DNA from: Oscillospiraceae bacterium
GTDB taxonomy: Bacteria > Bacillota > Clostridia > Oscillospirales > Ruminococcaceae
Length of the DNA stretch: 64,000 nucleotides
Direction of reading: 5' to 3'
NCBI GenBank assembly: GCA_031266415.1
Contig: JAISBB010000001.1
Span: forward strand, 221,556 to 285,555
Part shown: in pieces, positions 23,315 to 55,617 of the stretch
Layout: every line of letters begins with the position of its first letter
Position numbering within the stretch: position 1 is the stretch's first letter
The notes under the pieces: model-generated
What the model was told of the DNA's origin: nothing
Database searches by the model: none
Seen by the model: only the letters and a program-made list of their open reading frames with translations
Program-made: the position numbers and the translations under genes

Positions 23315-24088
23315 CTATTTCAAATAAACAATTAAGCCTTCTTTTAATTTTTTCAACGTACGGCCATGAATTTGACAAATTCGAGACTCAGTAACCTCTA
23401 ATATATTTGCTATTTCTTTAAATTTAAGCCGTTCGCTATAATACAATGCCAAAATTAATTTTTCTCTCTCCAATAATTTTGAAATAAGCTCTGTTAATTG
23501 TTGAGCGAATTCCTTCTTAAGCAATTCTTCATCCGGTGAACCAAAACCAGTTGTATCCTGAAATTCTACCTGGTTCCCCTCTAATGCTCCATAAACCAAT
23601 TCTTCATAAGAAATAATGTGAAATCTACTTATTTCGCTAATTATTTTGCGTACATTTTCCACAGTTATTCCTAAATATTCTGCTACCTTCCCTTCCAGAT
23701 TCTCTGTTTCACTGCATTTTAAATCCACAAAAGCCTTTTCCACTTGCTTGGCTTCTCGCCTAAGCCTTCTTGGAACCCAATCTTGTTGCCTTAAATAATC
23801 AATTACATTACCTCGGATTCTTATGGAAGCAAAAGTTTCAAATTTTACTTCTCTTGTGAAATCAAATCTCTCAACACAATCTATTAATGTCATCATACCA
23901 TGATTTACAACATCTTCCATTTCAACATCATTATATGCACCGCGCATCTTAAAAACAAGACCCTTAACCAATCGCGTATATTTCATTACAATTTCATTGC
24001 GCAGCTTAACATCTCTCGTTTGACTATAACATTTCCACAGCTCTTTGTCAACCACAACCGAGTCCGACATGATTTCACGTCCCTCCAA
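23315..24088 (-). CDS. fliA: Flagellar sigma factor FliA/SigD (sigma-28)
   Basis: Region 2 (RNEIVMKYTRLV..., FETFASIRIRGNVIDYLR), the region 4 HTH (LKFKEIANILEVTESRICQIH), and position immediately after flhA. Confidence 0.9.
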   Translation of the reverse strand: MEGREIMSDSVVVDKELWKCYSQTRDVKLRNEIVMKYTRLVKGLVFKMRGAYNDVEMEDVVNHGMMTLIDCVERFDFTREVKFETFASIRIRGNVIDYLRQQDWVPRRLRREAKQVEKAFVDLKCSETENLEGKVAEYLGITVENVRKIISEISRFHIISYEELVYGALEGNQVEFQDTTGFGSPDEELLKKEFAQQLTELISKLLEREKLILALYYSERLKFKEIANILEVTESRICQIHGRTLKKLKEGLIVYLK

Positions 24089-31685: not shown

Positions 31686-33161
31686 CTATCGGCCTGCGCG
31701 TGCAATTTCTTTTACAGACTCTAGTGCAGACCCCAAGCAACTAACAACACTAGAAACCGAAGCAGCTGAGACATTTGCGGAAATAACGTTGTCGGTCTCA
31801 TCTATATTTGAGCCTTTCAAAAAGCCCGCTTGCAAAGTAGCAACAGCGGTATCTGTATCCAGCACTCGAAACGGCCCAGAGCCCGGCGTCGTTTGCAACT
31901 TGCCGCCGCCTGCATCAGCCAACCCGGCGGCATTTGGCGTATCGACAACGGCAAGCCGGAACACAACACGCCGCGTTCCCTTGTAAGAAACTTCGAAATC
32001 AAAACCATTCCAACCAGGGGCGGTGGCACCAGGGGGCATAACGATACTCTCGAAAGCCTGCAAATTTTCCTTCCGGCACGGCTGTGCTGGGTACCCTGAG
32101 TTGGGGTCTCCGACGTTAAGTCTTCCTGGTAGGTTGTTATTGCGCCCAAACGCGCCATCAGAGTCGAGGTGTCCTGGCTTCCACGGCGGCAGAAACAAGT
32201 CATCGCGCATCCAATTTGGATTCATCCATCCCACCAAATCGCTGCCGTCGCTCCGTGCCAGCATCCAGGAACTTGGTTCCTCGCCGTCGCCGAGGGCGAC
32301 AGTCCGAACCGAAACGTCACCAATCGCTGTTAAACTCACTTCCGCACCGCCACCGCGATTCCCACTCCAACGCCCTCCAAACCCGACAGGGGCGGCGTCG
32401 AACTGTCTGGTTGCAGGGTTCCACGGGCCTGCGTACTGATTTCGAGTCTGTGCATCGATTGCCACAATCGGCGTCCCAAAAATAATAGGGTAAACCTTGA
32501 TAAAGTCGGGATGGTTCCGTCCTCCCGCCTTCGCGCCGTTAAGTGGCGAGCAACCAATACCTGCACCTGGAGCAGTTCGCGGTACAAACAAAAATCGCGA
32601 CGCGTTTGCGGGGCCCCGTCCCTCCGGCCTGTCTGCCACGCCAGTCCAGGCCCCCTGGTACGCAAACGCTGCATCCACGTCAGGTGGTCCTATTGGCATT
32701 AAATTCACAGCCGCTGCATCGGCCTCCGCCATACCGTGCGTAGACAAATATTTTCGATAGTTCCAATTGTCCCAATCTTCACCAGTCGTCGGGTCCTTCA
32801 ACGGAGTTTGCGCAAAACGGTGCATACCGGCAGCCGCCTGCGGGTAACAGCAAAGTGCATACTGGTGATCATTTTCCAAACAAAAACAAATGGAGTTTCC
32901 TACTGCCACATGTTCGTGGGGCGCATCAGACGGAACATCACCAAAAAACCGGGCAACACCGGTCGTCTCCGCGCCAGGGCGGCCCGCCGAAGTTCCACTT
33001 CCACCTTCGCTGGGAATTACAGTGAACCCCTTGTCGAGGCCGTAAACGGCCCTCCGCGCTGTCGCGCCAAGTAGATGACCCGCGCCAGCCTGCGCAACAT
33101 TTTCCTGTTGCATCCTTTTTAACATTCGCAGATTCGTTGCTGCTGAACTTAATCCACCCAT
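31686..33161 (-). CDS. G+C-rich, highly divergent axial protein in the flgE (hook) position
   Basis: Strong RBS (AAAGGAGAG-N7-ATG). The N-terminus LSSAATNLRMLKRMQQENVAQAGAG and the C-terminus LQAGFLKGSNIDETDNVIS weakly match the axial-protein terminal motifs. Its position between flgD and fliM supports the call, but the central ~400 aa are unrecognisable. Confidence 0.5.
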   Translation of the reverse strand: MGGLSSAATNLRMLKRMQQENVAQAGAGHLLGATARRAVYGLDKGFTVIPSEGGSGTSAGRPGAETTGVARFFGDVPSDAPHEHVAVGNSICFCLENDHQYALCCYPQAAAGMHRFAQTPLKDPTTGEDWDNWNYRKYLSTHGMAEADAAAVNLMPIGPPDVDAAFAYQGAWTGVADRPEGRGPANASRFLFVPRTAPGAGIGCSPLNGAKAGGRNHPDFIKVYPIIFGTPIVAIDAQTRNQYAGPWNPATRQFDAAPVGFGGRWSGNRGGGAEVSLTAIGDVSVRTVALGDGEEPSSWMLARSDGSDLVGWMNPNWMRDDLFLPPWKPGHLDSDGAFGRNNNLPGRLNVGDPNSGYPAQPCRKENLQAFESIVMPPGATAPGWNGFDFEVSYKGTRRVVFRLAVVDTPNAAGLADAGGGKLQTTPGSGPFRVLDTDTAVATLQAGFLKGSNIDETDNVISANVSAASVSSVVSCLGSALESVKEIARAGR

Positions 33162-33410: not shown

Positions 33411-34361
33411 TTACACAACCTTCCACTCTTCCGCCGGCGTTTTTTTATTCTGACCCTGGCCCAAATGGTTAATAGCCGCGTCGATTTTCCTTTTTAAGTT
33501 ACCTATGCCATTGTCATTTTTAAACTCAATTAGTTTTGTGTTCACCCGGTTTTTGGCGATAACCAACAAACGATATTTTTGTCTTCCTGCTTCTTTTGCA
33601 TCTTCAGAGCCTAAATCAATCCCTTCCTGAGTCTTTTGCATATCATCATCAATTTTCGCTAACAAAGCATTCCATTTTCCACCTAAATCATTTAGAGTAG
33701 CACGGAATTCAACTAATCGGTCACACAAATTTTTTCTCACTCCATTAGAGCGCTGTTTCTTTTCAGCCATCGCAATAAGGGCATCAATTCCTTCTTTAGT
33801 AAAAGTCATATCGTCTTGTAACTGCTGCGCCCTGTTTTCATATTCCGTAACAATTGGAGGAGTCACGCTAACTGCAGCCTCTGCTGAGACTGCCCCAAAA
33901 ACCCGATCTGCAGGAATCCAATCATCCCCAATCAATAAAGAAATAGTATTGCCCTGTTTCGAAACGGCTTTCACTTTACCTACATGCAAATCCGCATCAC
34001 CCGGGGACTGAAAACTAACAGAGCTGTCAATCAATTTCTGCGCAGTTGAGAAGGCTTTCTGTTTTGCGGCTTTTTCCATTGTGTCAGAAACACGTTGCAA
34101 CATTTCTATATTTGCCCCAGCCAAGGCAATATCCACAGCACTACCGGCACCACCACCACCAGATCCCAATCCAGCGGCAAGGTTTTGAGTAGCAATAGCC
34201 ACAAATTTCGCCGTTGTGGCCGCATTCCATTTCTCTTTTTTGCCACCTTCTGGCTTCTTCAATACTAGCTCTCCATTGGGACCCAAAGTAACAGTGGCAG
34301 CATTTTCGTTTTTGTGTCTTTCGTTAAGCTTCGCCAACAACGCACTTGAAACAATACCCAT
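33411..34361 (-). CDS. flgD: Flagellar hook-capping protein FlgD-like with a long C-terminal extension
   Basis: ...ANIEMLQRVSDTM... then AQKLIDSSVSF....GKVKAVSKQGNTISLLIGDDWIPADRVFGA resembles the FlgD Tudor-like core. It lies between fliK and the hook gene, and about 160 extra helical residues follow. Confidence 0.6.
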   Translation of the reverse strand: MGIVSSALLAKLNERHKNENAATVTLGPNGELVLKKPEGGKKEKWNAATTAKFVAIATQNLAAGLGSGGGGAGSAVDIALAGANIEMLQRVSDTMEKAAKQKAFSTAQKLIDSSVSFQSPGDADLHVGKVKAVSKQGNTISLLIGDDWIPADRVFGAVSAEAAVSVTPPIVTEYENRAQQLQDDMTFTKEGIDALIAMAEKKQRSNGVRKNLCDRLVEFRATLNDLGGKWNALLAKIDDDMQKTQEGIDLGSEDAKEAGRQKYRLLVIAKNRVNTKLIEFKNDNGIGNLKRKIDAAINHLGQGQNKKTPAEEWKVV

Positions 34362-34367
34362 ATATCG

Positions 34368-35903
34368 TCACCTCTTAACAGCAGCATCTAAAACAAACTC
34401 ACTAGCGTTTGCAGCCATTCCTTTCCAATGGTCGTAAGCTTCTTCTTTTTGGCGGTTCAAATTGTCTTGTGACCCGTTCCCTGTTGCATTTTCGCCGTTG
34501 TTTGCTCCAAAATTGCCAACATTAACAGTCTCCAACTGAATTCCACGCGCCGCTAGTTCATTTCTAAATGCAGGAAGTAACTGCAACAAAAGAGCTCGCG
34601 TTTGATTATTTTCCGCTTGTAAATCTACTGTTACTTGGTCATTCGCAACCATAACAACAACAGTCAGTTGCCCAAATTCTCCTAAGTCTAAACTAAATTT
34701 TGCAACACCATCACACTTTGCTCCAGCAGAAATATAAGCATTTTCAATTACTTCAATAAGCTGCTGTTTAATTGAAGAATACGTCTCTTTCAAAGTTGGT
34801 TCAAAATCTCTGCCTGCCGCAGCAGAAAGTGAAACATCCACATTCACAAAATCAGAACGAAAGCTCTCGGAAAAATCTTGATTCGCATTCTGATTTTGCC
34901 CTTCTTGGCCGGAACTAAAATCTTCTGAAAGCCTTTCAACAGCTTCTTCTGCTTGTAAAGAAGAAATTACTACTTCACCAGATTCCACACCCTTTTTCTG
35001 CGATTCGCCGACATTATTTCTAATATTAAGCAACTCATTGCCACTCCCAAGAGAATCCTTTTCAAATGGCAATTTTAAAAATAACGAACCTGAATCGGGC
35101 TCCGCAGACACAAACATTTCAGCAAACTGATCAGAAGAAATTTCATCAGCAGCACCATTTTCGCCAAACAAAACTGCAAATTGCGAGGATTTCCCAATAT
35201 CAATTCTTGGATGGCTATCATCCGAAACAGTCATGGCCGCGGGATTAGATTCTGAATTGCCTTTTTGCTTCTCACAGGGAGCCAACGCGGCAACTTCTGG
35301 CTCAATAACATCTACTCCTATAGGTTCCCCCGATTCTATTGCGGCACTCGACATGGGAACAGTGTTTTTTGGCACAAAGAATCCAACCCCATTTGCAGCC
35401 GCTACTTGCGAAACAACAGCAGCACTAACATCTGAAGCTTTTAGCCTCGAGGTTTTTTCTTCTTTTTCTTCACCATCACAAAACTCAGCAACACTTTGTG
35501 TTGGCGTTGCAGGATTTTTAGGTGAGGAATCTTTCCGGCCATGGGGTTCTTCTGACGGTTTTTTTTCTATTGTTCCTGTACCCTGGGACGGAAGTTGGTC
35601 CAAACTCATTTTAGACTCCGACTTTGAAGTCGCCTTTCCAACAACAAACAACGGCTGAGACGCATCCCCAATGGGGTTAGAACTCTTACTATCACTTTTC
35701 CGAAATTGGGGATGCCCCAAATTAAAACGGTTCAACAAGCCATCACTATACTTTTTTCTTTTGCTATCGCCTGCAAACATACAAAAATGATCTAAAAAAC
35801 TTACACTCACACCATTAGCTTTCTGGCCATCTCTCTGCTCTGCAAGAAAATGAGACGATTCCATTGGTAAAGTTGTTGAATCTAATATTTTTTCTGGCCT
35901 CAT
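34368..35903 (-). CDS. fliK: Flagellar hook-length control protein FliK
   Basis: A long S/P/E-rich, disordered-looking N-terminal region is followed by a C-terminal Flg_hook-type domain (LSLDLGEFGQLTVVVMVANDQVTVDLQAENNQTRALLLQLLPAFRNELAARGIQL). Lies after fliJ. Confidence 0.75.
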   Translation of the reverse strand: MRPEKILDSTTLPMESSHFLAEQRDGQKANGVSVSFLDHFCMFAGDSKRKKYSDGLLNRFNLGHPQFRKSDSKSSNPIGDASQPLFVVGKATSKSESKMSLDQLPSQGTGTIEKKPSEEPHGRKDSSPKNPATPTQSVAEFCDGEEKEEKTSRLKASDVSAAVVSQVAAANGVGFFVPKNTVPMSSAAIESGEPIGVDVIEPEVAALAPCEKQKGNSESNPAAMTVSDDSHPRIDIGKSSQFAVLFGENGAADEISSDQFAEMFVSAEPDSGSLFLKLPFEKDSLGSGNELLNIRNNVGESQKKGVESGEVVISSLQAEEAVERLSEDFSSGQEGQNQNANQDFSESFRSDFVNVDVSLSAAAGRDFEPTLKETYSSIKQQLIEVIENAYISAGAKCDGVAKFSLDLGEFGQLTVVVMVANDQVTVDLQAENNQTRALLLQLLPAFRNELAARGIQLETVNVGNFGANNGENATGNGSQDNLNRQKEEAYDHWKGMAANASEFVLDAAVKR

Positions 35904-41397: not shown

Positions 41398-41799
41398 CTA
41401 AATCTGCGTATTAATTAAGTTTTTTATGCCGTCTACACCCAAACTCGCAAACTTTGCCGCTGCTTTCGAAGAAACCGCGAATTCTCGCGCAGCCAACATG
41501 ACCTCTGCCGTTGAGACCTTTTCTCCATTTAAAGAACGCACCGCATTTTTCTGGTTCTCTTTTTCGGACTTCGTAACACGCCCCAAAACACTGGCACAAG
41601 AAGCTTCTAGACTAATTGGCGGCGAAGCCACGGCCGCAGCCTTATCGCCAACAATCGCAGGTGGCGGCATAAGACTCGCCAACAAATCTGAGAACCCAGA
41701 ACAAGGGCTGTGTGTCTTTTGCGAGGTTCCATCACAAAAACGAGCAAAAAGTCCCGAATTCACATTCAAAAGGTCTGGTGTTTGCCGAGCCATAGTCAT
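41398..41799 (-). CDS. fliE: FliE-like flagellar hook-basal body protein (divergent)
   Basis: The C-terminus VSTAEVMLAAREFAVSSKAAAKFASLGVDGIKNLINTQI resembles the FliE C-terminal helix that ends ...MQI. Lies between flgC and fliF. Confidence 0.55.
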   Translation of the reverse strand: MTMARQTPDLLNVNSGLFARFCDGTSQKTHSPCSGFSDLLASLMPPPAIVGDKAAAVASPPISLEASCASVLGRVTKSEKENQKNAVRSLNGEKVSTAEVMLAAREFAVSSKAAAKFASLGVDGIKNLINTQI

Positions 41800-41811
41800 T
41801 CAACTCCTTAT

Positions 41812-42363
41812 TTACTTTCCGGCAATTTTAAGTGCCGATTCTTCTGATTTACTAACCGCTTTAGCCAAATTTATCCCGAGGTTGCAAAGCGCTGCTGCGT
41901 CTTTTCCACGCAACACTTCCTTCAGTGGGTCAACATTTGAACCAACAACAAACCCCTGAGTATCAGCCAGCGGACTCTCTGGATCAAAGTCTTTGCGAAC
42001 AGGATTTTGGTTACGCATTATTTCACAGTGCACACCAGAAAATCGCGGATTTTGACCTTCACTTGTTCGCCACGGTATCTCCTTACGAAGTCGACCGATA
42101 CGGCAACACGTACCCGAATCACCACGGCGAAGATATAAAAATCCAAAGCGCCTATCTTTGTGTTTCCTTTTGCTCACACTTCTCAATAAACCTCGCGAGA
42201 ATATAGATTTTTTCGAAGCTACAACAAATACCGGAATCTTCCCCTGATAGCCGGTTACATCTTGCTTCGCAAGATTTTCTGCAACGACTGCCGACATGTC
42301 GCGGCCATTTGCCATTGCTTGGCGCGCACTTTCCCAAGCTGACTGAAGATGTTCAATTTCCAA
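41812..42363 (-). CDS. flgC: FlgC-like flagellar proximal rod protein (divergent)
   Basis: AENLAKQDVTGY corresponds to NNIANANTT, and FDPESPLADTQGFVVGSNVDPLKE corresponds to YDP.HP.AD..GYV..PNV....E. Lies after flgB. Confidence 0.6.
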   Translation of the reverse strand: MEIEHLQSAWESARQAMANGRDMSAVVAENLAKQDVTGYQGKIPVFVVASKKSIFSRGLLRSVSKRKHKDRRFGFLYLRRGDSGTCCRIGRLRKEIPWRTSEGQNPRFSGVHCEIMRNQNPVRKDFDPESPLADTQGFVVGSNVDPLKEVLRGKDAAALCNLGINLAKAVSKSEESALKIAGK

Positions 42364-42381
42364 GTTATTTCACCACACTTA

Positions 42382-42684
42382 TCAACCGAGCACACTTTCA
42401 GTTGCGTCGAAAAAAAGCGCCACGGCTGCAGACCATTTAGCCATTTCTTGTTCAGCATAAACTCGAGCCATCGTTTGATCAACTTCGTCAACATGCTCTC
42501 CCGCTGGGAGTTCTCCTACGTCAACTTGAAAAACATCCTTTTCCTTCTTTTTAACACATTCTAAAGGAGAAAAACCCGGTGCATTCATCCCCGCCAAATT
42601 AAAAGCAGCAATACGCTCTTGTTTTTCTGCAACACCAAACAAATAGTTGTGGGCAGCAATCAAGTTTACATTAGTGTCTAACAA
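42382..42684 (-). CDS. flgB: FlgB-like flagellar proximal rod protein (divergent); TTG start
   Basis: NLIAAHNYLFGVAEKQERIAAFNLAGMNAPGF corresponds to the FlgB N-terminal motif (...RQ.VIA.NIAN..TPGF). TTG 42684 lies 6 nt after a GGAGGT RBS. The tracked ATG at 42735 would sit only 9 nt from the promoter -10 element. Confidence 0.55.
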   Translation of the reverse strand: MLDTNVNLIAAHNYLFGVAEKQERIAAFNLAGMNAPGFSPLECVKKKEKDVFQVDVGELPAGEHVDEVDQTMARVYAEQEMAKWSAAVALFFDATESVLG

Positions 42685-42743
42685 ACAAACACCTCCAAAC
42701 AAAACGATGAATATACATAAATATACCAACTGCAATTAACAAG

Positions 42744-42772
42744 ATGATAACATAATTCTTTTGCAAAATCAA
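42744..42772 (-). promoter_or_regulatory. SigA-type promoter of the flagellar operon
   Basis: On the minus strand: TTGATT-N17-TATCAT with a TGn extended -10, about 55 nt upstream of the flgB TTG start. Confidence 0.55.
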
Positions 42773-42924
42773 GAAGTATATTAAACAACTCTAATTTGAA
42801 TAAATATACGCAATATAAGCTATTTTTGTCTTAAATTAAGCACATATTTACACAAATTAAATTGACTAAAAAAATCACGCCTAAATTCTTTCATAATTTC
42901 ATTTATTCACATTTATTAATATAT

Positions 42925-42960
42925 CAAATCGTCCATTTTATTTGCCGATTATTTGCCGAA
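42925..42960 (+). promoter_or_regulatory. Sigma-28-like motif within an 11-nt tandem repeat (plus strand)
   Basis: CAAA-N15-GCCGATTA compares with the SigD/FliA consensus TAAA-N15-GCCGATAT. The element TATTTGCCGA(T/A) is directly duplicated at 42939-42949 and 42950-42960. Confidence 0.3.
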
Positions 42961-43026
42961 ATCAATTTTTCAACAACAACGAATTAAATTGCACGTATCT
43001 CACAATCCTCTTTTCCAGTTTCTCGT

Positions 43027-43059
43027 AAAAAAAACATGGGGCCAAAACTTATTGGCCCC
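43027..43059 (-). terminator. Rho-independent terminator of the 90-aa peptide transcript
   Basis: On the minus strand: GGGGCCAA-TAAGTT-TTGGCCCC followed by ATGTTTTTTTT. A weaker hairpin (AGCGAA-TAAAAG-TTCGCT plus TTT) precedes it at 43091-43108. Confidence 0.75.
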
Positions 43060-43426
43060 TAAAACCGATCTCTAGAAAATGTCGAGGAAAAGCGAACTTT
43101 TATTCGCTTGAGACCTTTCAGCACAGCAGACAAAACACATAAACCCACAATAGGGAAAGAAAACTGTGCTTTTGCTAAAAGATAGACCGCCACTTTGTGC
43201 ATTCTTTCTTCAAACAACCAACAAGGGGTCAAAGCAAGCACAACTCACATGAACTCCCAAACCTCCACGCAAGTGCAAACAGATTGTTCTTCATTAGATC
43301 AATGCCACGGTTTTTTTCAGTCTCTAGCTAACCACGCGAATAAATCACAAGAAAATCAACAAACCTTCATTTCGCGGCCAGCAAAAAACAAAACACAACA
43401 CGGCCGAAGTCGTAAAAAAACCAAAG

Positions 43427-43699
43427 TTAGTTCCCCCGGCGTGGGTTGTAGGGTTGCCCATAACCGCTATCAGCAACCCTCTGTAACGCAGCGTTGAACC
43501 TCTCTCCTAAGGTTTGTGTTTGTTGTGTTTCTTGGCGTTGCGGCGGACGTTCAGGACCGACAGTGTCCCTATACGGGGTGCTACTGCGGGCGTCGCCAGG
43601 CGTGGCACTTCCATCGATCTCGATTTGGTATTCTTCGCCGGCACCACCAATAGCAAGCAAATCTACCTCCGTAAGTGTTTCAAAATCTAGCTTTTCCAT
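43427..43699 (-). CDS. 90-aa Cys-free acidic/Q/P-rich peptide with a double-glycine-type leader (or a FlgM-like disordered protein)
   Basis: It has an AAAGGAGAA RBS, its own promoter and its own terminators. The N-terminus MEKLDFETLTEVDLLAIGGA fits LSxxELxxIxGG if processing follows GA. The core is G+C-rich. Confidence 0.6.
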   Translation of the reverse strand: MEKLDFETLTEVDLLAIGGAGEEYQIEIDGSATPGDARSSTPYRDTVGPERPPQRQETQQTQTLGERFNAALQRVADSGYGQPYNPRRGN

Positions 43700-43743
43700 T
43701 TTTCATTCTCCTTTCAAATTCAAGAAAATATTTTAGTGAGGTC

Positions 43744-43772
43744 ATTGTACTGCAAATTCCCACTAAGATCAA
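43744..43772 (-). promoter_or_regulatory. SigA-type promoter of the peptide gene
   Basis: On the minus strand: TTGATC-N17-TACAAT, about 40 nt upstream of the ATG. Confidence 0.55.
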
Positions 43773-44054
43773 TGGATGGCTTTGCAACTTCAAAAACATC
43801 ATTTTGTTGACAATATATCTAATAAATTTATTGCTTACACATTTTGAATCATGAAATGCTACCACAAGTTGGCAAATTTAATGTAACCGCAGCAACAAAA
43901 ATAGCACAAATTAATGGTAAATTTTTCTTTTCTAAATCATGAACTTACAATTAATAAAGTTGTCCCTTTCGTCCTCCATTGACCAAAGAAACCACAAATC
44001 ATTCATTTTTTTCCACACCACCACCACAAAAACAAATTTCATTTCTTTGCAAAG

Positions 44055-44092
44055 CAAAAGTAGCAACTGTAAAAAAACAGTTGCTACTTTTA
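44055..44092 (-). terminator. Bidirectional-looking intrinsic terminator after the Zn-ribbon gene
   Basis: 11-bp stem AGTAGCAACTG / CAGTTGCTACT flanked by A4 and T4 runs. Confidence 0.7.
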
Positions 44093-44115
44093 ACATAATC
44101 AATTACAAAATCTCT

Positions 44116-44391
44116 TTAGTTCTCTTCCTCTCGTTTTGCAAAACATTCACTACAATAAACTGGCCGACCTTCGCTTGGTTTAAATGGGACCTTTGCTTCC
44201 GCGCCACAGCTAGCACATGCAGCCACATACATCTCACGTTTTGCACCGTTTCTTTTTCGTAAATCTCTACATTCTTTGCATCGTTGCGGTTCGTTAACAA
44301 ACCCCTTTTCTGCAAAAAATTCTTGCTCGCCAATTGTGAAAATAAACTCTGCACCACAGTCTTTGCAAATTAATGCCTTGTCTTCGTACAT
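44116..44391 (-). CDS. Zinc-ribbon protein (CxxC-x17-CxxC duplicated)
   Basis: CKDCGAEFIFTIGEQEFFAEKGFVNEPQRCKECR plus CASCGAEAKVPFKPSEGRPVYCSECF. The start is probably M37 (44391), which gives the usual ~90-aa size. The tracked ORF extends to 44499. Confidence 0.7.
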   Translation of the reverse strand: MYEDKALICKDCGAEFIFTIGEQEFFAEKGFVNEPQRCKECRDLRKRNGAKREMYVAACASCGAEAKVPFKPSEGRPVYCSECFAKREEEN

Positions 44392-44720
44392 CTCCAAAAT
44401 CTCTCCCAATATTGGTAAAATTTGCCCATTAACATGCCCGCAACGTAACTTGAAACTTAATTTGCCGCTTTCTGTTAGGGCTTCCACAGTCCCACTCACC
44501 GCCCGCTAACAAACCAGCAAACGAAAAAGTAAAACTTCACACGGTTATTTTACACGAAAGATTCAAAAAAGTCAACCTCTCCCACAAGCACTTTCCAAAA
44601 AATCACAAATCGATGCAAAACTAAACTTTTTAGCAACAAATACATTACAAACTAAATCGAACAAATTTATCTTCACAACACAGGCAATTCACTCACAAAA
44701 TTCTTCAACAAAGAATATAC

Positions 44721-51706: not shown

Positions 51707-52744
51707 CTACCGATTAACACATGGTTTTGTCCGAACCCCAGCGGCACTGCCAGCTTGCCTTGCCTGGTCAAATAATTCCGACAACTCTTTACTTGACCTC
51801 ACAACCTGTAACATTTCCATCCCTTCACGAAGAAGTTCGTCCCGATTTTTAATTAATTCGGAAACCTGCTCTCGCAAATCATTAATCAATATCACATGGT
51901 CATCGTAACGTTTGCGTAAATGTACGTTTTCTTTCTTTAGTTTTTCAAATTCATGCTGCGCAACAGCACCAAATCGAGCTATCCCCCGCATCTTTGAAAA
52001 ATTTTCATCTGTTAACGCCACCATTTCAGAGCGGAATGGTAACTTGCTGCGCTTAAATGGGATATCATCAATTGATTTTACAGAAGCGTCGATACTCTTG
52101 TAATCTTGCAATTTTGTCTCAAGTTTTTGCACTTCTTTCAGCAAAATATTCCGCTTAAGATCTTCCGCCATCTTAAGAGGTTTATAAACATCGTCTGACT
52201 TTGTAATGTCGAATCCATTTTTTCTTATGCTTGCCAATGCTTTCGCGTGCAAAAGAGTAAGCCCTTTTCGATCAAATATCTCTTTAGCAGAAAGTCTCCC
52301 ATCTTTAGTTAATGGCACGAAACAAAAATGCATATGAGGGATGCGCTCATCCATATGAACAACAGCATCAACAACCAAATCCTCACCAAAATAATCCTTC
52401 AGGAAAGAAAAATTACACTCAAAAAAACTCCTAATTTTGGCCTCTTCTTGCACTTCAAAAAAACTTTTATTAGAAGTAACAAACATTGAACACAAAACCG
52501 TTGCATCTTTTCGCACAGTTCTTTGCCCCTTATAGCACTTTTTTAATATGTTTTTATATTCTAATTCATATTCCAATTTCACTAAACTAGGGTGCCCCAC
52601 AAACCTGTGCAAACGGTAGTTTAATCGCGAATGCTCTGGCGCAAACACCAACTTGTCTGAAGGATTTTCTTGTTGATTGTGTGCCTGAATTTCTGGCAAA
52701 TTAGTCAGTTTATTTTTTGAATTCAAGCAAATCAACGAAGCCAC
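51707..52744 (-). CDS. mob: MobV-family (Mob_Pre) relaxase / plasmid recombination enzyme
   Basis: The HxDExxPHxH motif is present (VVHMDERIPHMHFCFVPL), with an N-terminal ...K.K....L..IQAHNQ motif I region and a coiled-coil C-terminus. Consistent with PF01076. Confidence 0.75.
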   Translation of the reverse strand: MASLICLNSKNKLTNLPEIQAHNQQENPSDKLVFAPEHSRLNYRLHRFVGHPSLVKLEYELEYKNILKKCYKGQRTVRKDATVLCSMFVTSNKSFFEVQEEAKIRSFFECNFSFLKDYFGEDLVVDAVVHMDERIPHMHFCFVPLTKDGRLSAKEIFDRKGLTLLHAKALASIRKNGFDITKSDDVYKPLKMAEDLKRNILLKEVQKLETKLQDYKSIDASVKSIDDIPFKRSKLPFRSEMVALTDENFSKMRGIARFGAVAQHEFEKLKKENVHLRKRYDDHVILINDLREQVSELIKNRDELLREGMEMLQVVRSSKELSELFDQARQAGSAAGVRTKPCVNR

Positions 52745-53090: not shown

Positions 53091-53165
53091 TGGTGATCCG
53101 TGGGGGAATTGAACCCCCGATACCGCCGTGAAAGGGCGGTGTCTTAACCTCTTGACCAACGGACC
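53091..53165 (-). tRNA. tRNA-Glu (anticodon UUC)
   Basis: The reverse complement reads GGTCCGTTGGTCAAGAGGTTAAGACACCGCC-CTTTCAC-GGCGGT...GGGGGTTCAATTCCCCC-ACGGATC-A-CCA. Confidence 0.9.
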
Positions 53166-53172
53166 AAATATT

Positions 53173-53249
53173 TGGTAGCGGTAGTTGGATTCGAACCAAC
53201 GACCCTCCGGGTATGAACCGAATGCTCTAACCAACTGAGCTATACCGCC
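53173..53249 (-). tRNA. tRNA with CAU anticodon (elongator Met, or Ile2 if lysidinylated)
   Basis: The reverse complement reads GGCGGTATAGCTCAGTTGGTTAGAGCATTCGG-TTCATAC-CCGGA...GTTGGTTCGAATCCAAC-TACCGCT-A-CCA. It lacks initiator features. Confidence 0.85.
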
Positions 53250-53748: not shown

Positions 53749-53802
53749 ACTCACAGAAATGCGAACTTAAGCAATTTGCGCAATACAAGTAGGAGGTGCC
53801 GT

Positions 53803-54933
53803 GTGAAAAATGCAAAATTATTCACGGCGTTAAAATATTTCAAAAGCAACACAAAACAATCTATTATATTATTTTCAACACTAACTATATCTACCAGCTG
53901 CATTTATTTTATTTTTTCCATTATCTCCAGTATGCTTGCATGCACAAAGCATATAATTTTACTACCGAGTGAGAAATTTTCATATATTGAAACTAACCAG
54001 CAATTACAAATGCAAGATGAGATGATAACTAAAGTAAAAGCATTCCCCGAAGTAAAAAAAACAATTAACAGTACATTAAGCGGAATCTGTTTTCGGTCTA
54101 TCAGCGCATACCTTGATACTCATGTACTTACCATCCCTAATCCCGCGGACTTAAATTATATTGCTAATTACATCAATTTGGAATTATCAAATGGTCGTTT
54201 ACCAATAGAAGCCAAGGCAGAAGCTGTTTTTCACGAAAATATTTTAAAAAACCTCAATCTCAAAGTCGGGGACCTCATCACAAGTGGGACAATCAAAACG
54301 CCGCATTTAATTGGTGATTATAAAATTGTTGGCAGTTTTACAGGAGATTTAATTATAGGGATAGCCAGCGCCCCCGCAAGTTACAATAACAACTCAAGTG
54401 GAATAATCGTTATTCCAAAAGAAGGAAAACTTAATGCAATAAATACTAAGCTAAAATCACTAGACCCAAATGGAACACGCACACTCACCTATTCCCGAGA
54501 AAAATCGAGGATTGAAATTGCAACCTCATTACCTCTTATTATATTCAAAATCATAGGATCTGCGATACTAATAACACTATCATTTTGTATAAGTGCTTTC
54601 AGCAGTAGCATTTACCTTAAAAGAAGTGAAGAATTTGGAATTATGCACGCCGTTGGGTACGATAAATCATTCATAACAAAATTAATAATCAAAGAATTGG
54701 CAAATCTTACCTGTTTAGCATACATATTTGGATGTGCAATTTCAATGGCAATAATTACAATCATTAATCATTTCATATTTTCTCCAAAAGGACAAAACTT
54801 AACAATTTTGACCGCAAAGGGTTTTTTGGGAACTGCAGCAACCTTGGCAACAATGTTTTTATTTGCAGGCATCCCGATCTTACGTCGGTTAACAAAGTGG
54901 AATCCGATTTCTGTGATCGAGAGGAGAAATTAG
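53803..54933 (+). CDS. ABC transporter permease, FtsX/MacB-like
   Basis: N-terminal TM helix, a large extracytoplasmic domain, then a C-terminal 3-TM FtsX domain. GTG 53803 lies 6 nt after an AGGAGG RBS. Confidence 0.8.
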   Translation: MKNAKLFTALKYFKSNTKQSIILFSTLTISTSCIYFIFSIISSMLACTKHIILLPSEKFSYIETNQQLQMQDEMITKVKAFPEVKKTINSTLSGICFRSISAYLDTHVLTIPNPADLNYIANYINLELSNGRLPIEAKAEAVFHENILKNLNLKVGDLITSGTIKTPHLIGDYKIVGSFTGDLIIGIASAPASYNNNSSGIIVIPKEGKLNAINTKLKSLDPNGTRTLTYSREKSRIEIATSLPLIIFKIIGSAILITLSFCISAFSSSIYLKRSEEFGIMHAVGYDKSFITKLIIKELANLTCLAYIFGCAISMAIITIINHFIFSPKGQNLTILTAKGFLGTAATLATMFLFAGIPILRRLTKWNPISVIERRN

Positions 54934-54936
54934 GCT

Positions 54937-55617
54937 ATGCTACAATGCAAAAACTTGAGCTTAACATGCAAAGATGGAGAACACGAGAGGGAACTTCTGC
55001 ACGACATTAATCTTGTGATTGAAACAGGAGAAAGTGTAGTTTTTTTTGGTCCTTCCGGCAGCGGGAAAAGCTCCCTCATGTACCTACTGTCTTTGCTTCG
55101 CGTGGCTACCACAGGCGAAGTATACCTAGACAACAATGAAATTATGTCACAAAACGATAACGCAAAAGCAGCAATCAGAAAAAAACATTTTGGGTTCATT
55201 TTTCAACAATATTTTTTATTGCCTCACCTAAATGTTTTAGAGAATGTGCTTGTTCCAGAAAATAGTATATCCACAAAATCGAAACAAAAAGCAACTACCT
55301 TTTTAGAAAAATTGGAATTAACCGCATGTATAAACAAAAAAATTCATCAACTATCCGGTGGCGAGTGTCAACGCGTGGCAATCGCAAGGGCACTTATTCA
55401 CGGCCCCACAATTTTATTCGCAGATGAACCAACCGCGGCACTTGATCATAAATCAGCGCTATCTGCAATGAAAATGATACGAGAACACAAAGGAAACGGC
55501 ACACTTATTTTAACAACGCACGACACTTCAATTTTAACTGGCCAAGAAAGAATTCTTAAGCTAGAACATGGCAAAATCACAGAAATTAAACATAAAAACT
55601 TCGTTCAGGCAGGGTGA
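54937..55617 (+). CDS. ABC transporter ATP-binding protein (MacB/LolD-like)
   Basis: Walker A GPSGSGKSS, Q-loop, signature LSGGECQRVAIARAL and Walker B ILFADEPT. Confidence 0.9.
   Translation: MLQCKNLSLTCKDGEHERELLHDINLVIETGESVVFFGPSGSGKSSLMYLLSLLRVATTGEVYLDNNEIMSQNDNAKAAIRKKHFGFIFQQYFLLPHLNVLENVLVPENSISTKSKQKATTFLEKLELTACINKKIHQLSGGECQRVAIARALIHGPTILFADEPTAALDHKSALSAMKMIREHKGNGTLILTTHDTSILTGQERILKLEHGKITEIKHKNFVQAG

Follow-up and report, generated by a model that had tools for sequence, protein, structure and literature searches.

A small ORF beside a clostridial flagellar operon as a plausible precursor with a double-glycine-type leader

What is the function, if any, of the small reading frame that lies directly upstream of the flagellar operon in this Oscillospiraceae genome? 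We looked at it within the window, by which we mean the whole 64,000-nucleotide stretch of DNA that was analyzed. A previous reading, made from the letters of the DNA only (here the sequence-only reading), regarded it as an uncharacterised secreted-peptide candidate, a label that we find tenable. Our own proposal, which we put forward tentatively, is that the ORF is a plausible new PCAT-type cargo, namely a lineage-specific precursor with a double-glycine leader. Below we describe the locus and weigh this proposal against other possible explanations.

The locus and its coding status

The features of the locus, in the order in which they would be transcribed, are the following.

43744..43772, minus strand: sigma-70-like promoter site TTGATC-N17-TACAAT, 45-73 nt 5' of the ATG, 9/12 match
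43706-43714, minus strand: Shine-Dalgarno sequence AAAGGAGAA, with GGAG ending 8 nt before the ATG
43427-43699, minus strand: ORF with an ATG start, 90 aa
43640..43699, minus strand: codons 1-20, MEKLDFETLTEVDLLAIGGA, candidate double-glycine-type leader (F-15, L-12, D-8, L-7, I-4, G-2, A-1)
43430..43639, minus strand: codons 21-90, 70-aa core, hydrophilic, Cys-free and mostly disordered (predicted)
43427..43429, minus strand: stop codon TAA
43420..43440, minus strand: weak terminator-like hairpin and T7 overlapping the stop codon, 7 pairs of which 3 are GC (terminator scan)
43060..43426, minus strand: G+U-rich 3' region of 367 nt, from the stop codon to the terminator stem
43091..43108, minus strand: weak hairpin AGCGAA-loop-TTCGCT followed by TTTCC, 6-7 bp, which also forms in the computed fold
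43028..43059, minus strand: strong intrinsic terminator GGGGCCAA-loop-TTGGCCCC followed by a T-run, stem 43059..43038, 8 bp of which 6 are GC

The ORF, with the peptide sequence given before, as well as the ribosome binding site, the promoter site and the strong terminator that the sequence-only reading had listed are all present, and the 3' region that it put at ~370 nt is the 367-nt segment listed above. The same reading described two tandem terminators; the one at 43038-43059 is indeed strong and the hairpin at 43091-43108 does exist, but the latter is weak and was missed by the terminator scan. The other boundary of the unit is the terminator of the upstream zinc-ribbon gene, at about 44056-44093, and this layout supports the view of the locus as a self-contained unit between two terminators.

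The signals differ in weight. Promoter-type matches are no commoner in the region than in shuffled sequence (6 observed vs 4.9 ± 2.3), so TTGATC-N17-TACAAT carries little weight alone and is suggestive by its position only. The initiation region is more specific in that AGGAG at -16..-5 is found ahead of only 0.77% of the ATGs of the whole window, and AAAGGAGA-ATGAAAAATG is a near-copy of the initiation region of the flagellar gene at 31686-33161 in the same window.

The ORF is probably translated into protein, judging from its codons and its start. The annotated frame has the top score among the six frames, and its score of -10.9, compared with -32.1 ± 6.9 in 3000 composition-matched shuffles with an open frame, corresponds to a fraction of 0.0017. 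GC at the first codon position exceeds that at the second and third, which is the pattern of real genes. The codon usage of the leader is host-like. The core codons are far more GC-rich than those of the leader, as had been noted before (57% and 42%, with 38.8% for the window), and a stretch of the core DNA is low-complexity CAA/ACA. The synonymous codon score of the core (-0.15) is below that of every host gene (mean 0.21, minimum -0.06). Conservation lends translation no support because the ORF has no homologues.

These last points lead to one possible alternative, which is that the ORF is untranslated and that the locus either gives rise to a non-coding RNA of about 700 nt or yields no product; the frame would then be open by chance, in a patch rich in GC and poor in T. 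We consider this unlikely, although several observations speak for it. At the base composition of the ORF, an open frame of 90 codons has a probability of about 0.02 per frame, and on the opposite strand the same patch holds further long ORFs of 100 aa and 80 aa. When the window ORFs with lengths of 60-140 aa, which are mostly spurious, are ranked by host-codon score, this ORF comes only 74th of 139. The 3' region, in addition, folds somewhat better than its shuffles when the terminators are included (z = -3.5), but the effect becomes marginal when they are removed (z = -2.1), and the RNA of the ORF itself is unstructured (z = 0.10). The latter, together with the absence of an Rfam match, argues against a structured RNA gene in the GC-rich patch: Rfam 15 at gathering scores gave no match in the region, a search of 42700-44150 against Rfam at E<=10 returned noise only, and ARAGORN detected no tmRNA, so this candidate was rejected. 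The non-coding explanation also needs three coincidences to occur jointly, which are a canonical Shine-Dalgarno sequence ideally spaced from the first ATG (0.8% of ATGs), a frame signal with p about 0.002 and the best leader match of the window at the very N-terminus. A second gene within the 3' region was rejected as well; the small ORFs there have starts in a poor context and no family match, and this includes the sole hydrophobic small ORF nearby (43059-43241).

Leader, core and known double-glycine systems

Double-glycine leaders carry Leu(-12)-X3-Glu(-8)-Leu(-7), are hydrophobic at -4 and terminate in Gly-Gly, Gly-Ala or Gly-Ser (PMC6363468, PMC6959990); Gly-Ala thus counts among the recognised cleavage motifs (PMC6363468). 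At -12, Ile or Val also fits the class. In the ORF the corresponding residues are in register, namely F6(-15), L9(-12), D13(-8, a conservative change), L14(-7) and I17(-4), followed by G19-A20 at the end, and the leader length of 20 residues is within the class norm of about 15-30. The sequence-only reading had proposed this alignment and a cleavage after G19-A20, and an independent matrix agrees with both. We built this matrix from 26 known double-glycine leaders, whose sequences were not taken from a curated alignment, and scored all 65,948 stop-free 15-mers of the six-frame translation of the window. Residues 6-20, FETLTEVDLLAIGGA, were the top scorer with 11.5 bits. In leave-one-out scoring 24 of the 26 known leaders reach at least 11.2 bits, which places the ORF within their range, at its low end. 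The exact tail probability of the score is 1e-5 to 2.6e-6 per 15-mer, and 0.2-0.7 matches as strong are expected by chance anywhere in the window. The match is thus notable only because it is placed at the N-terminus of an ORF; once every ORF N-terminus of the window is taken into account its chance would be ~0.03, which we regard as modestly significant.

Single-sequence AlphaFold2 prediction shows residues 11-17 (positions -10 to -4) as helical, with pLDDT of only about 56-66, and a leader helix is likewise present in the PCAT1-CtA structure (PMC6959990). A search with bacteriocin leader models had also been suggested; the leader and bacteriocin models of Pfam and NCBIfam (e.g. TIGR01847 and the ComC families) gave no match even at E<=10, a negative of limited force because these models are short and weak.

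The core is strongly hydrophilic (GRAVY -1.42, pI 4.93) and does not contain any hydrophobic or amphiphilic segment. The sequence-only reading described it as acidic, disordered and lacking Cys. The whole 90-aa peptide is Cys-free and the core is predicted to be mostly disordered, but "acidic" overstates its charge, which is only mildly so, with 10 D+E vs 8 R. The statement that a C-terminal helix is missing is also not quite right, since AlphaFold2 predicts one helix at residues 64-77 with pLDDT 80-88.

By its sequence, such a core is too hydrophilic for a bacteriocin, and neither the class II bacteriocin nor the short quorum peptide that had been considered agrees with a 70-aa core of this kind. 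The likeness to class II bacteriocin and pheromone precursors such as pediocin PA-1 and ComC is confined to the leader, with its Leu(-12)-X3-[Glu/Asp](-8)-Leu(-7)-X2-Ile(-4)-X-Gly-[Gly/Ala]. What we take to be the closest look-alike is the pediocin leader, ...LTEKEMANIIGG, compared with ...LTEVDLLAIGGA in the ORF. Members of that class are cationic and amphiphilic or hydrophobic, and have an immunity gene nearby. The ORF core shows none of these properties, and genes for immunity, an exporter or a two-component system are absent next to the ORF.

A different comparison is with CtA, the substrate of PCAT1 in Acetivibrio (Clostridium) thermocellus, whose 90 residues consist of a 24-residue leader and a 66-residue unstructured cargo (PMC6959990). 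The ORF has the same total length and a leader of 20 residues, also with a double-glycine-type end and leucines at -7 and -12, and the CtA helix from -10 to -4 is paralleled in the ORF by a prediction of low pLDDT; the cargo, 70 residues long, is likewise unstructured by prediction and has no assigned function, and both hosts are Clostridia. The two peptides differ in that no sequence similarity is detectable between them, and the cleavage motif would be Gly-Ala in the ORF but is Gly-Gly in CtA. The CtA gene reportedly adjoins that of PCAT1 (the report is that of Lin et al. 2015), whereas the ORF has no exporter gene within 64 kb.

MAM (microbial anti-inflammatory molecule) of Faecalibacterium has been proposed, mainly from modelling and gene co-occurrence, as a clostridial envelope protein that is no bacteriocin but is exported by a PCAT, which would also remove its double-glycine leader, about 21 residues long (PMC12184118). 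It differs from the ORF in being a helical protein of 135 aa with a conserved leader motif (MMMPAN...VxGG), highly abundant and encoded beside its PCAT, and it showed no sequence similarity to the ORF in any search.

Based on these comparisons, the mechanism that we tentatively suggest is as follows. The monocistronic gene would encode a 90-aa precursor made of a 20-residue leader, up to Gly19-Ala20, and a 70-residue cargo. The leader would form a short amphipathic helix over -10 to -4, and Leu-12, Leu-7 and Ile-4 would fit into the C39 peptidase groove of an ABC exporter (PCAT/AMS) whose gene would be located elsewhere in the genome. This exporter would cleave after Gly-Ala and move the unfolded 7.8-kDa cargo, Gly21-Asn90, outside the cell. 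In its architecture the precursor would resemble CtA and differ from a membrane-active bacteriocin or a short pheromone.

If this is true, the ORF would be a second CtA-like case, with a long, unstructured, non-antimicrobial cargo that carries a double-glycine leader and is encoded apart from its exporter, and it would come from a deep, almost unsampled lineage of Clostridia. Genome mining that begins with the exporter misses cargo genes that are not linked to one. We know of no established function for a CtA-like cargo. Small lineage-specific ORFs are common, and this orphan ORF is a modest and unproven lead.

Relatives, exporter and genomic neighbourhood

A search for homologues, also suggested before, gave none. 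From 5.8 billion protein clusters only the query itself was returned as a genuine relative, and an exhaustive phmmer (HMMER) search had the same outcome. The sole other protein match, P0002, was rejected; it consists of 18 tandem Big_13 Ig-like repeats of 21.9 bits each, and its E-value is inflated because of this repetition. A scan of JGI metagenomes and GTDB genomes with the peptide showed no relative, a back-translated 12-residue leader pattern gave zero matches, and the ORF matches no Pfam or NCBIfam family. In the PDB, the full peptide had weak unrelated matches only (E of at least 0.19) and the leader alone had none. PHROGs contains one marginal match to the N-terminus, phrog_30940, of unknown function (E = 0.088).

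The sequence-only reading saw the flagellar neighbourhood as a clue. When FliF was used as a probe, no relative was found among GTDB genomes, and 80 NrdD loci that were compared had no similarity to the region. FliG led to one relative, Clostridia bacterium PG1894_198 (74% identity). In this sole relative genome other genes and a spacer of about 200 bp precede flgB, and no homologue of the ORF occurs in the 15 kb there. Nothing supports a functional tie between the ORF and the flagellar operon, and its position there is most likely incidental.

The absence of an adjacent C39-peptidase ABC exporter, modification enzyme or immunity gene, as observed before, holds across 64 kb (for the immunity gene, no obvious one). 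The larger ORFs of the window, roughly 50 in number, all lack a C39 domain, and an FtsX-type pair (53776-55617) is the only ABC system there. PCAT cargo genes usually adjoin the exporter gene, and therefore this absence counts against the PCAT-cargo reading.

Competing explanations for a translated or decaying locus

Another hypothesis accepts translation, for which its evidence equals that of the PCAT-cargo reading, but keeps the product in the cytoplasm as a fast-evolving, disordered small protein whose leader likeness is a coincidence. As a sub-case, the protein could be an anti-sigma-28 factor similar to FlgM but highly diverged, whose C-terminal helix would bind FliA and which might exit through the flagellar export apparatus. 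We find this hypothesis doubtful. It fits the lack of a nearby exporter, and the window contains the gene of a FliA/WhiG sigma factor at 23315-24088 (TIGR02479, 206 bits, cut-off 189.6), so that the genome can be expected to encode an anti-sigma factor as well. The length of 90 aa, the disorder, the lack of Cys and the confidently predicted helix at its C-terminal part also fit FlgM. The FlgM profile PF04316, with which the sequence-only reading had proposed to check this alternative, does not match the ORF at E<=10, and the PDB search matched no FlgM chain; the profile negative has little weight, since the flagellar proteins of this lineage are so diverged that FlgB and FlgC of the host escape Pfam too, and with NCBIfam models FlgC attains only about 33 bits where the cut-offs are 102-170.

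Other features speak against the FlgM-like sub-case more directly. FlgM binds sigma-28 via several C-terminal helices, whereas the ORF has a single predicted helix followed by about 13 residues, so that the sigma-binding helices would be missing or too few. The unit has its own sigma-70-like promoter site, and its strong terminator stands between it and flgB. The upstream zinc-ribbon protein is of the CxxC-x17-CxxC family TIGR04272 and not YvyF, whose gene is the neighbour of flgM in B. subtilis, and a yvyF-flgM-like gene pair was rejected on this ground. The locus is not conserved 5' of flgB in the one relative, and this explanation would not account for the leader match, for which p is about 0.03 over the window.

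Less probable still is that the locus is a decaying remnant acquired horizontally, for example the 5' end of a gene for a bacteriocin-like or secreted protein, which lost its partners, kept its signals and has no function. The core looks foreign in its GC and codon usage while the leader is host-like, the 3' region is long and featureless, an exporter is absent nearby, the region 5' of flgB differs from that of the relative, and genes for tRNAs and a Mob_Pre relaxase are located at a distance of 8-10 kb. Against this, comparison with plasmid and phage records revealed no similarity at the DNA level, the locus is not flanked by direct repeats that would mark an insertion, composition profiled at 1 kb is without an island boundary, and no protein family is matched in any other frame of the region. 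An origin from a mobile element was rejected on the first three of these points.

Finally, it is very improbable that the ORF encodes an exported motility regulator, a FlgM analogue with a bacteriocin-type signal whose 7.8-kDa cargo would leave through a distant PCAT or the flagellar export gate and act on FliA-dependent expression. A sigma-28-like promoter is seen in antisense orientation at 42925-42951, and with such a regulator it might add feedback.

Layout of the locus and its probable translation

The candidate 90-residue gene next to the flagellar operon (the ORF) is read here, tentatively and by analogy, as a real orphan gene for a double-glycine-leader cargo like CtA, the 90-residue substrate of the exporter PCAT1. 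Its leader (residues 1-20) would be cut by a C39-peptidase-containing ABC exporter (PCAT) encoded elsewhere, outside the window. The sequence-only reading had described a self-contained locus, and by sequence reading and a terminator scan we recovered the same 90 residues together with the ribosome-binding site, the promoter-like site and both hairpins:

43699 to 43427, minus strand: the ORF, with an ATG start, encoding a 90-residue peptide
43706-43714, minus strand: ribosome-binding site AAAGGAGAA, its GGAG ending 8 nt 5' of the ATG
43772..43744, minus strand: candidate promoter TTGATC-N17-TACAAT, 9/12 match
43440..43420, minus strand: weak terminator-like site over the ORF stop codon, from the terminator scan
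43091-43108, minus strand: weaker hairpin, present in sequence and fold
43059..43028, minus strand: strong terminator, 8-bp stem with 6 GC pairs, then a T-run
44116-44499, minus strand: upstream zinc-ribbon gene, with its own terminal hairpin at about 44056-44093
23315-24088: FliA/WhiG sigma factor gene, in the flagellar operon

Since the zinc-ribbon gene ends in its own hairpin, 43028-43775 is an isolated unit within the 1.4 kb that separate that gene from flgB, and the strong terminator insulates it from flgB. The promoter candidate is sigma-70-like and is favoured by its position only, as 9/12 matches are not rarer than chance (6 observed versus 4.9 +/- 2.3 in shuffled sequence). AGGAG at the observed spacing precedes only 0.77% of window ATGs, and the initiation region AAAGGAGA-ATGAAAAATG is nearly identical to that of gene 31686-33161 and similar to that of fliK (34368-35903).

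We trained a codon model on 38 window genes, and under it the annotated frame clearly outscores the other five (-0.12 per codon versus -0.57 to -0.96); its total of -10.9 also beats composition-matched open-frame shuffles (-32.1 +/- 6.9), 0.17% of which reach it. GC1 exceeds GC2 and GC3, the pattern of real genes. Other intrinsic signs point the other way: the codon score is below that of all real genes tested, including the diverged flgB, flgC and fliE (+0.14 to +0.36), it ranks 74th among 139 ORFs of 60-140 aa, mostly spurious, and codon choice in the core is unlike that of the host. No relatives were found by word-indexed search of a 5.8-billion-cluster protein database, by exhaustive phmmer against 1.84 billion representatives, in JGI metagenomes or in GTDB genomes, and the back-translated leader pattern gave zero matches; this carries little weight either way because the lineage is poorly sampled. 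The lone other phmmer match is to a protein with 18 identical Ig-like repeats and is an artefact of them. A possible, if doubtful, explanation is that the locus makes a non-coding transcript in which the ORF is open by chance; the RNA structure of the ORF is not unusual (z = 0.10) and the region has no Rfam family or tmRNA match, which opposes an RNA gene. Taken together, the Shine-Dalgarno and frame signals, the leader match and the isolation of the unit between terminators make it likely, in our view, that the ORF is translated.

A proposed double-glycine-type leader and its cargo

To check the proposed leader alignment without a pattern fitted to the ORF itself, we used a 15-column matrix of 26 double-glycine leaders known from the literature, not taken from a curated alignment. 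The segment FETLTEVDLLAIGGA, whose last position is residue 20, scored 11.5 bits, the top of 65,948 stop-free six-frame 15-mers (runner-up 9.0) and above all 13,524 15-mers of real window proteins. Known leaders mostly score higher (leave-one-out median 19.1; at least 11.2 in 24 of 26), which puts the segment near the bottom of their range. A 15-mer reaches this score with an exact tail probability of 1e-5 against the protein background and of 2.6e-6 against the six-frame background, thus a single such match anywhere in the window is unremarkable, 0.2-0.7 being expected by chance. Within the 15 admissible N-terminal positions of the ORF, P is about 1.5e-4, and after correction for about 200 ORF N-termini the chance is estimated at about 0.03.

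The residues L9 (-12), D13 (-8) and L14 (-7) have a spacing that fits the ComA consensus, Leu(-12)-X3-Glu(-8)-Leu(-7) (PMC6363468). I17 occupies position -4, the suggested source of exporter specificity (PMC6959990), and G19-A20 stand at the putative cleavage site, Gly-Ala being an accepted leader ending (PMC6363468). AlphaFold2, run on the single sequence, predicts with only moderate confidence a helix at residues 11-17 (positions -10 to -4), and in the PCAT1-CtA complex a two-turn leader helix spans positions -10 to -4 (PMC6959990). The matrix rank and these residue positions bear out the proposed register; none of the curated Pfam or NCBIfam models for leaders matched the ORF. Residues 1-32 (43699-43604) marginally match positions 1-32 of phrog_30940 (E = 0.088), a 71-position phage protein family without assigned function; its members, too, may be small proteins that carry a leader.

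The putative cargo (residues 21-90) has a pI of 4.9 and a GRAVY of -1.42, lacks Cys, Trp, His, Lys and Met, and is predicted by AlphaFold2 to be disordered apart from residues 64-77, where a helix is called with confidence. The class II bacteriocins and quorum peptides whose leader consensus the sequence-only reading had invoked are not supported as models for such a cargo: a membrane-active class II bacteriocin is ruled out by its hydrophilic, disordered character, and short pheromones are unlike it. PDB searches found no chain with sequence similarity to the peptide. The cargo would fit known PCAT loads: CtA joins a leader of 24 residues to an unstructured cargo of 66 that makes no specific contact with the transporter (PMC6959990). 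Both products thus total 90 residues with a long unstructured cargo. For MAM of Faecalibacterium, likewise from the Clostridia and not a bacteriocin, export by a PCAT has been proposed (PMC12184118). As had been stated, an exporter is missing nearby; no C39 peptidase domain occurs in the larger ORFs of the 64-kb window, whose sole ABC system is an FtsX-type pair (53776-55617). If the CtA-like reading is true, it is of modest interest, as the function of such cargo is unexplored and the gene would lie apart from that of its exporter.

The flagellar neighbourhood and other possible origins of the ORF

The downstream genes form a single operon of flgB, flgC, fliE, fliF, fliG, fliH, fliI, fliK, fliM, fliN/Y, fliP, fliR, flhB and flhA, with fliA and then two FlgF/G-type rod genes also in it. 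Over 21827-42735, fliA directly follows flhA, and flhF/flhG and chemotaxis genes are absent between them. The rod/hook genes are extremely diverged (41398-42735, holding flgB, flgC and fliE; 31686-33161; 33411-34361): FlgB and FlgC have no Pfam match at E<=10, the 5.8-billion-cluster database contains no homologue of FlgC, whose NCBIfam matches all stay under threshold, and the 491-aa and 316-aa genes at the expected flgE/flgD places lack Pfam matches. The flgC-fliE stretch has a GC of 46-52%, above that of the window.

It is also possible, if doubtful, that the ORF encodes a translated cytoplasmic orphan protein. A FlgM-like role, which had been offered as the alternative, is a minor sub-case of this and quite improbable. 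FliA is present, therefore an anti-sigma factor is expected somewhere in the genome; PF04316 (FlgM) gave nothing against the ORF at E<=10 and no FlgM structure matched, a weak negative because FlgB and FlgC of the same organism also escape Pfam. Against this role also stand the sigma-70-like promoter, the terminator between the unit and flgB, and a zinc-ribbon neighbour other than YvyF.

Judging from its proteins, the source organism is a deep, barely sampled Clostridia lineage: its NrdD reaches no more than 73% identity with that of any GTDB species, FliF has no relative in GTDB genomes, and FliG has one, in Clostridia bacterium PG1894_198, that is 74% identical, after which identity falls to 45%. 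In this relative flgB is preceded by dprA-like and pfkA-like genes (named from translations, not family searches), a 395-aa gene and a spacer of about 200 bp, with nothing similar to the ORF. In the window itself, the genes upstream of the ORF encode a CxxC-x17-CxxC zinc-ribbon protein, NrdD, a P-type ATPase, a macro-domain protein, a CAP-domain protein and a Mob_Pre relaxase. As the gene order upstream of flgB differs, the flagellar neighbourhood is not conserved and the adjacency is probably incidental; no functional link of the ORF to flagella is supported.

In synonymous codon choice the leader resembles the host (+0.08) and the core, residues 21-90, is foreign (-0.15; host genes have a mean of 0.21 and a minimum of -0.06), and the core has a GC of 57% versus 38.8% for the window and a CAA/ACA low-complexity run; that the ORF is a decaying remnant of acquired DNA is nevertheless improbable.

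Further features around the locus

The zinc-ribbon product (44116-44499) is 127 aa long, carries two zinc ribbons (zf_Tbcl and a CxxC-x17-CxxC domain, TIGR04272) and is not YvyF; its gene directly follows nrdD, where the NrdG activase might be expected. The Mob_Pre (plasmid recombination/relaxase) gene adjoins tRNA-Glu and tRNA-Met (51707-52744 and 53091-53249), which hints at an integrated mobilisable element; neither flanking repeats nor a composition step were found.

The 367 nt 3' of the ORF stop codon are G+U-rich, have no family match and, with terminators removed, fold marginally better than shuffles (z = -2.1). Small ORFs there lack good start signals and family matches. One of them, 43059-43241 (minus strand), is a hydrophobic 60-aa ORF (47 aa from an internal ATG) with poor start contexts, no family match, one membrane-helix-like segment and a basic tail, ending exactly at the strong terminator; it might conceivably encode a small membrane peptide with, for example, an immunity or toxin-like role. 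An antisense 100-aa ORF crosses the region (43195-43497, plus strand); it is open because that strand is A+C-rich and T-poor and hence has few stop codons, and its Pfam matches are all far below cut-off.

In the flgB upstream spacer, CAAATCGTCCATTTTATTTGCCGATTA (42925-42951, plus strand) has the form of a sigma-28-type promoter, TAAA-N15-GCCGATAA; no other site in the window matches the degenerate sigma-28 pattern without a mismatch. It is directed away from flgB, antisense toward the ORF locus, and could be an antisense promoter, a regulator site or chance. Two copies of the direct repeat TTTGCCGA also occur here (42940-42961).
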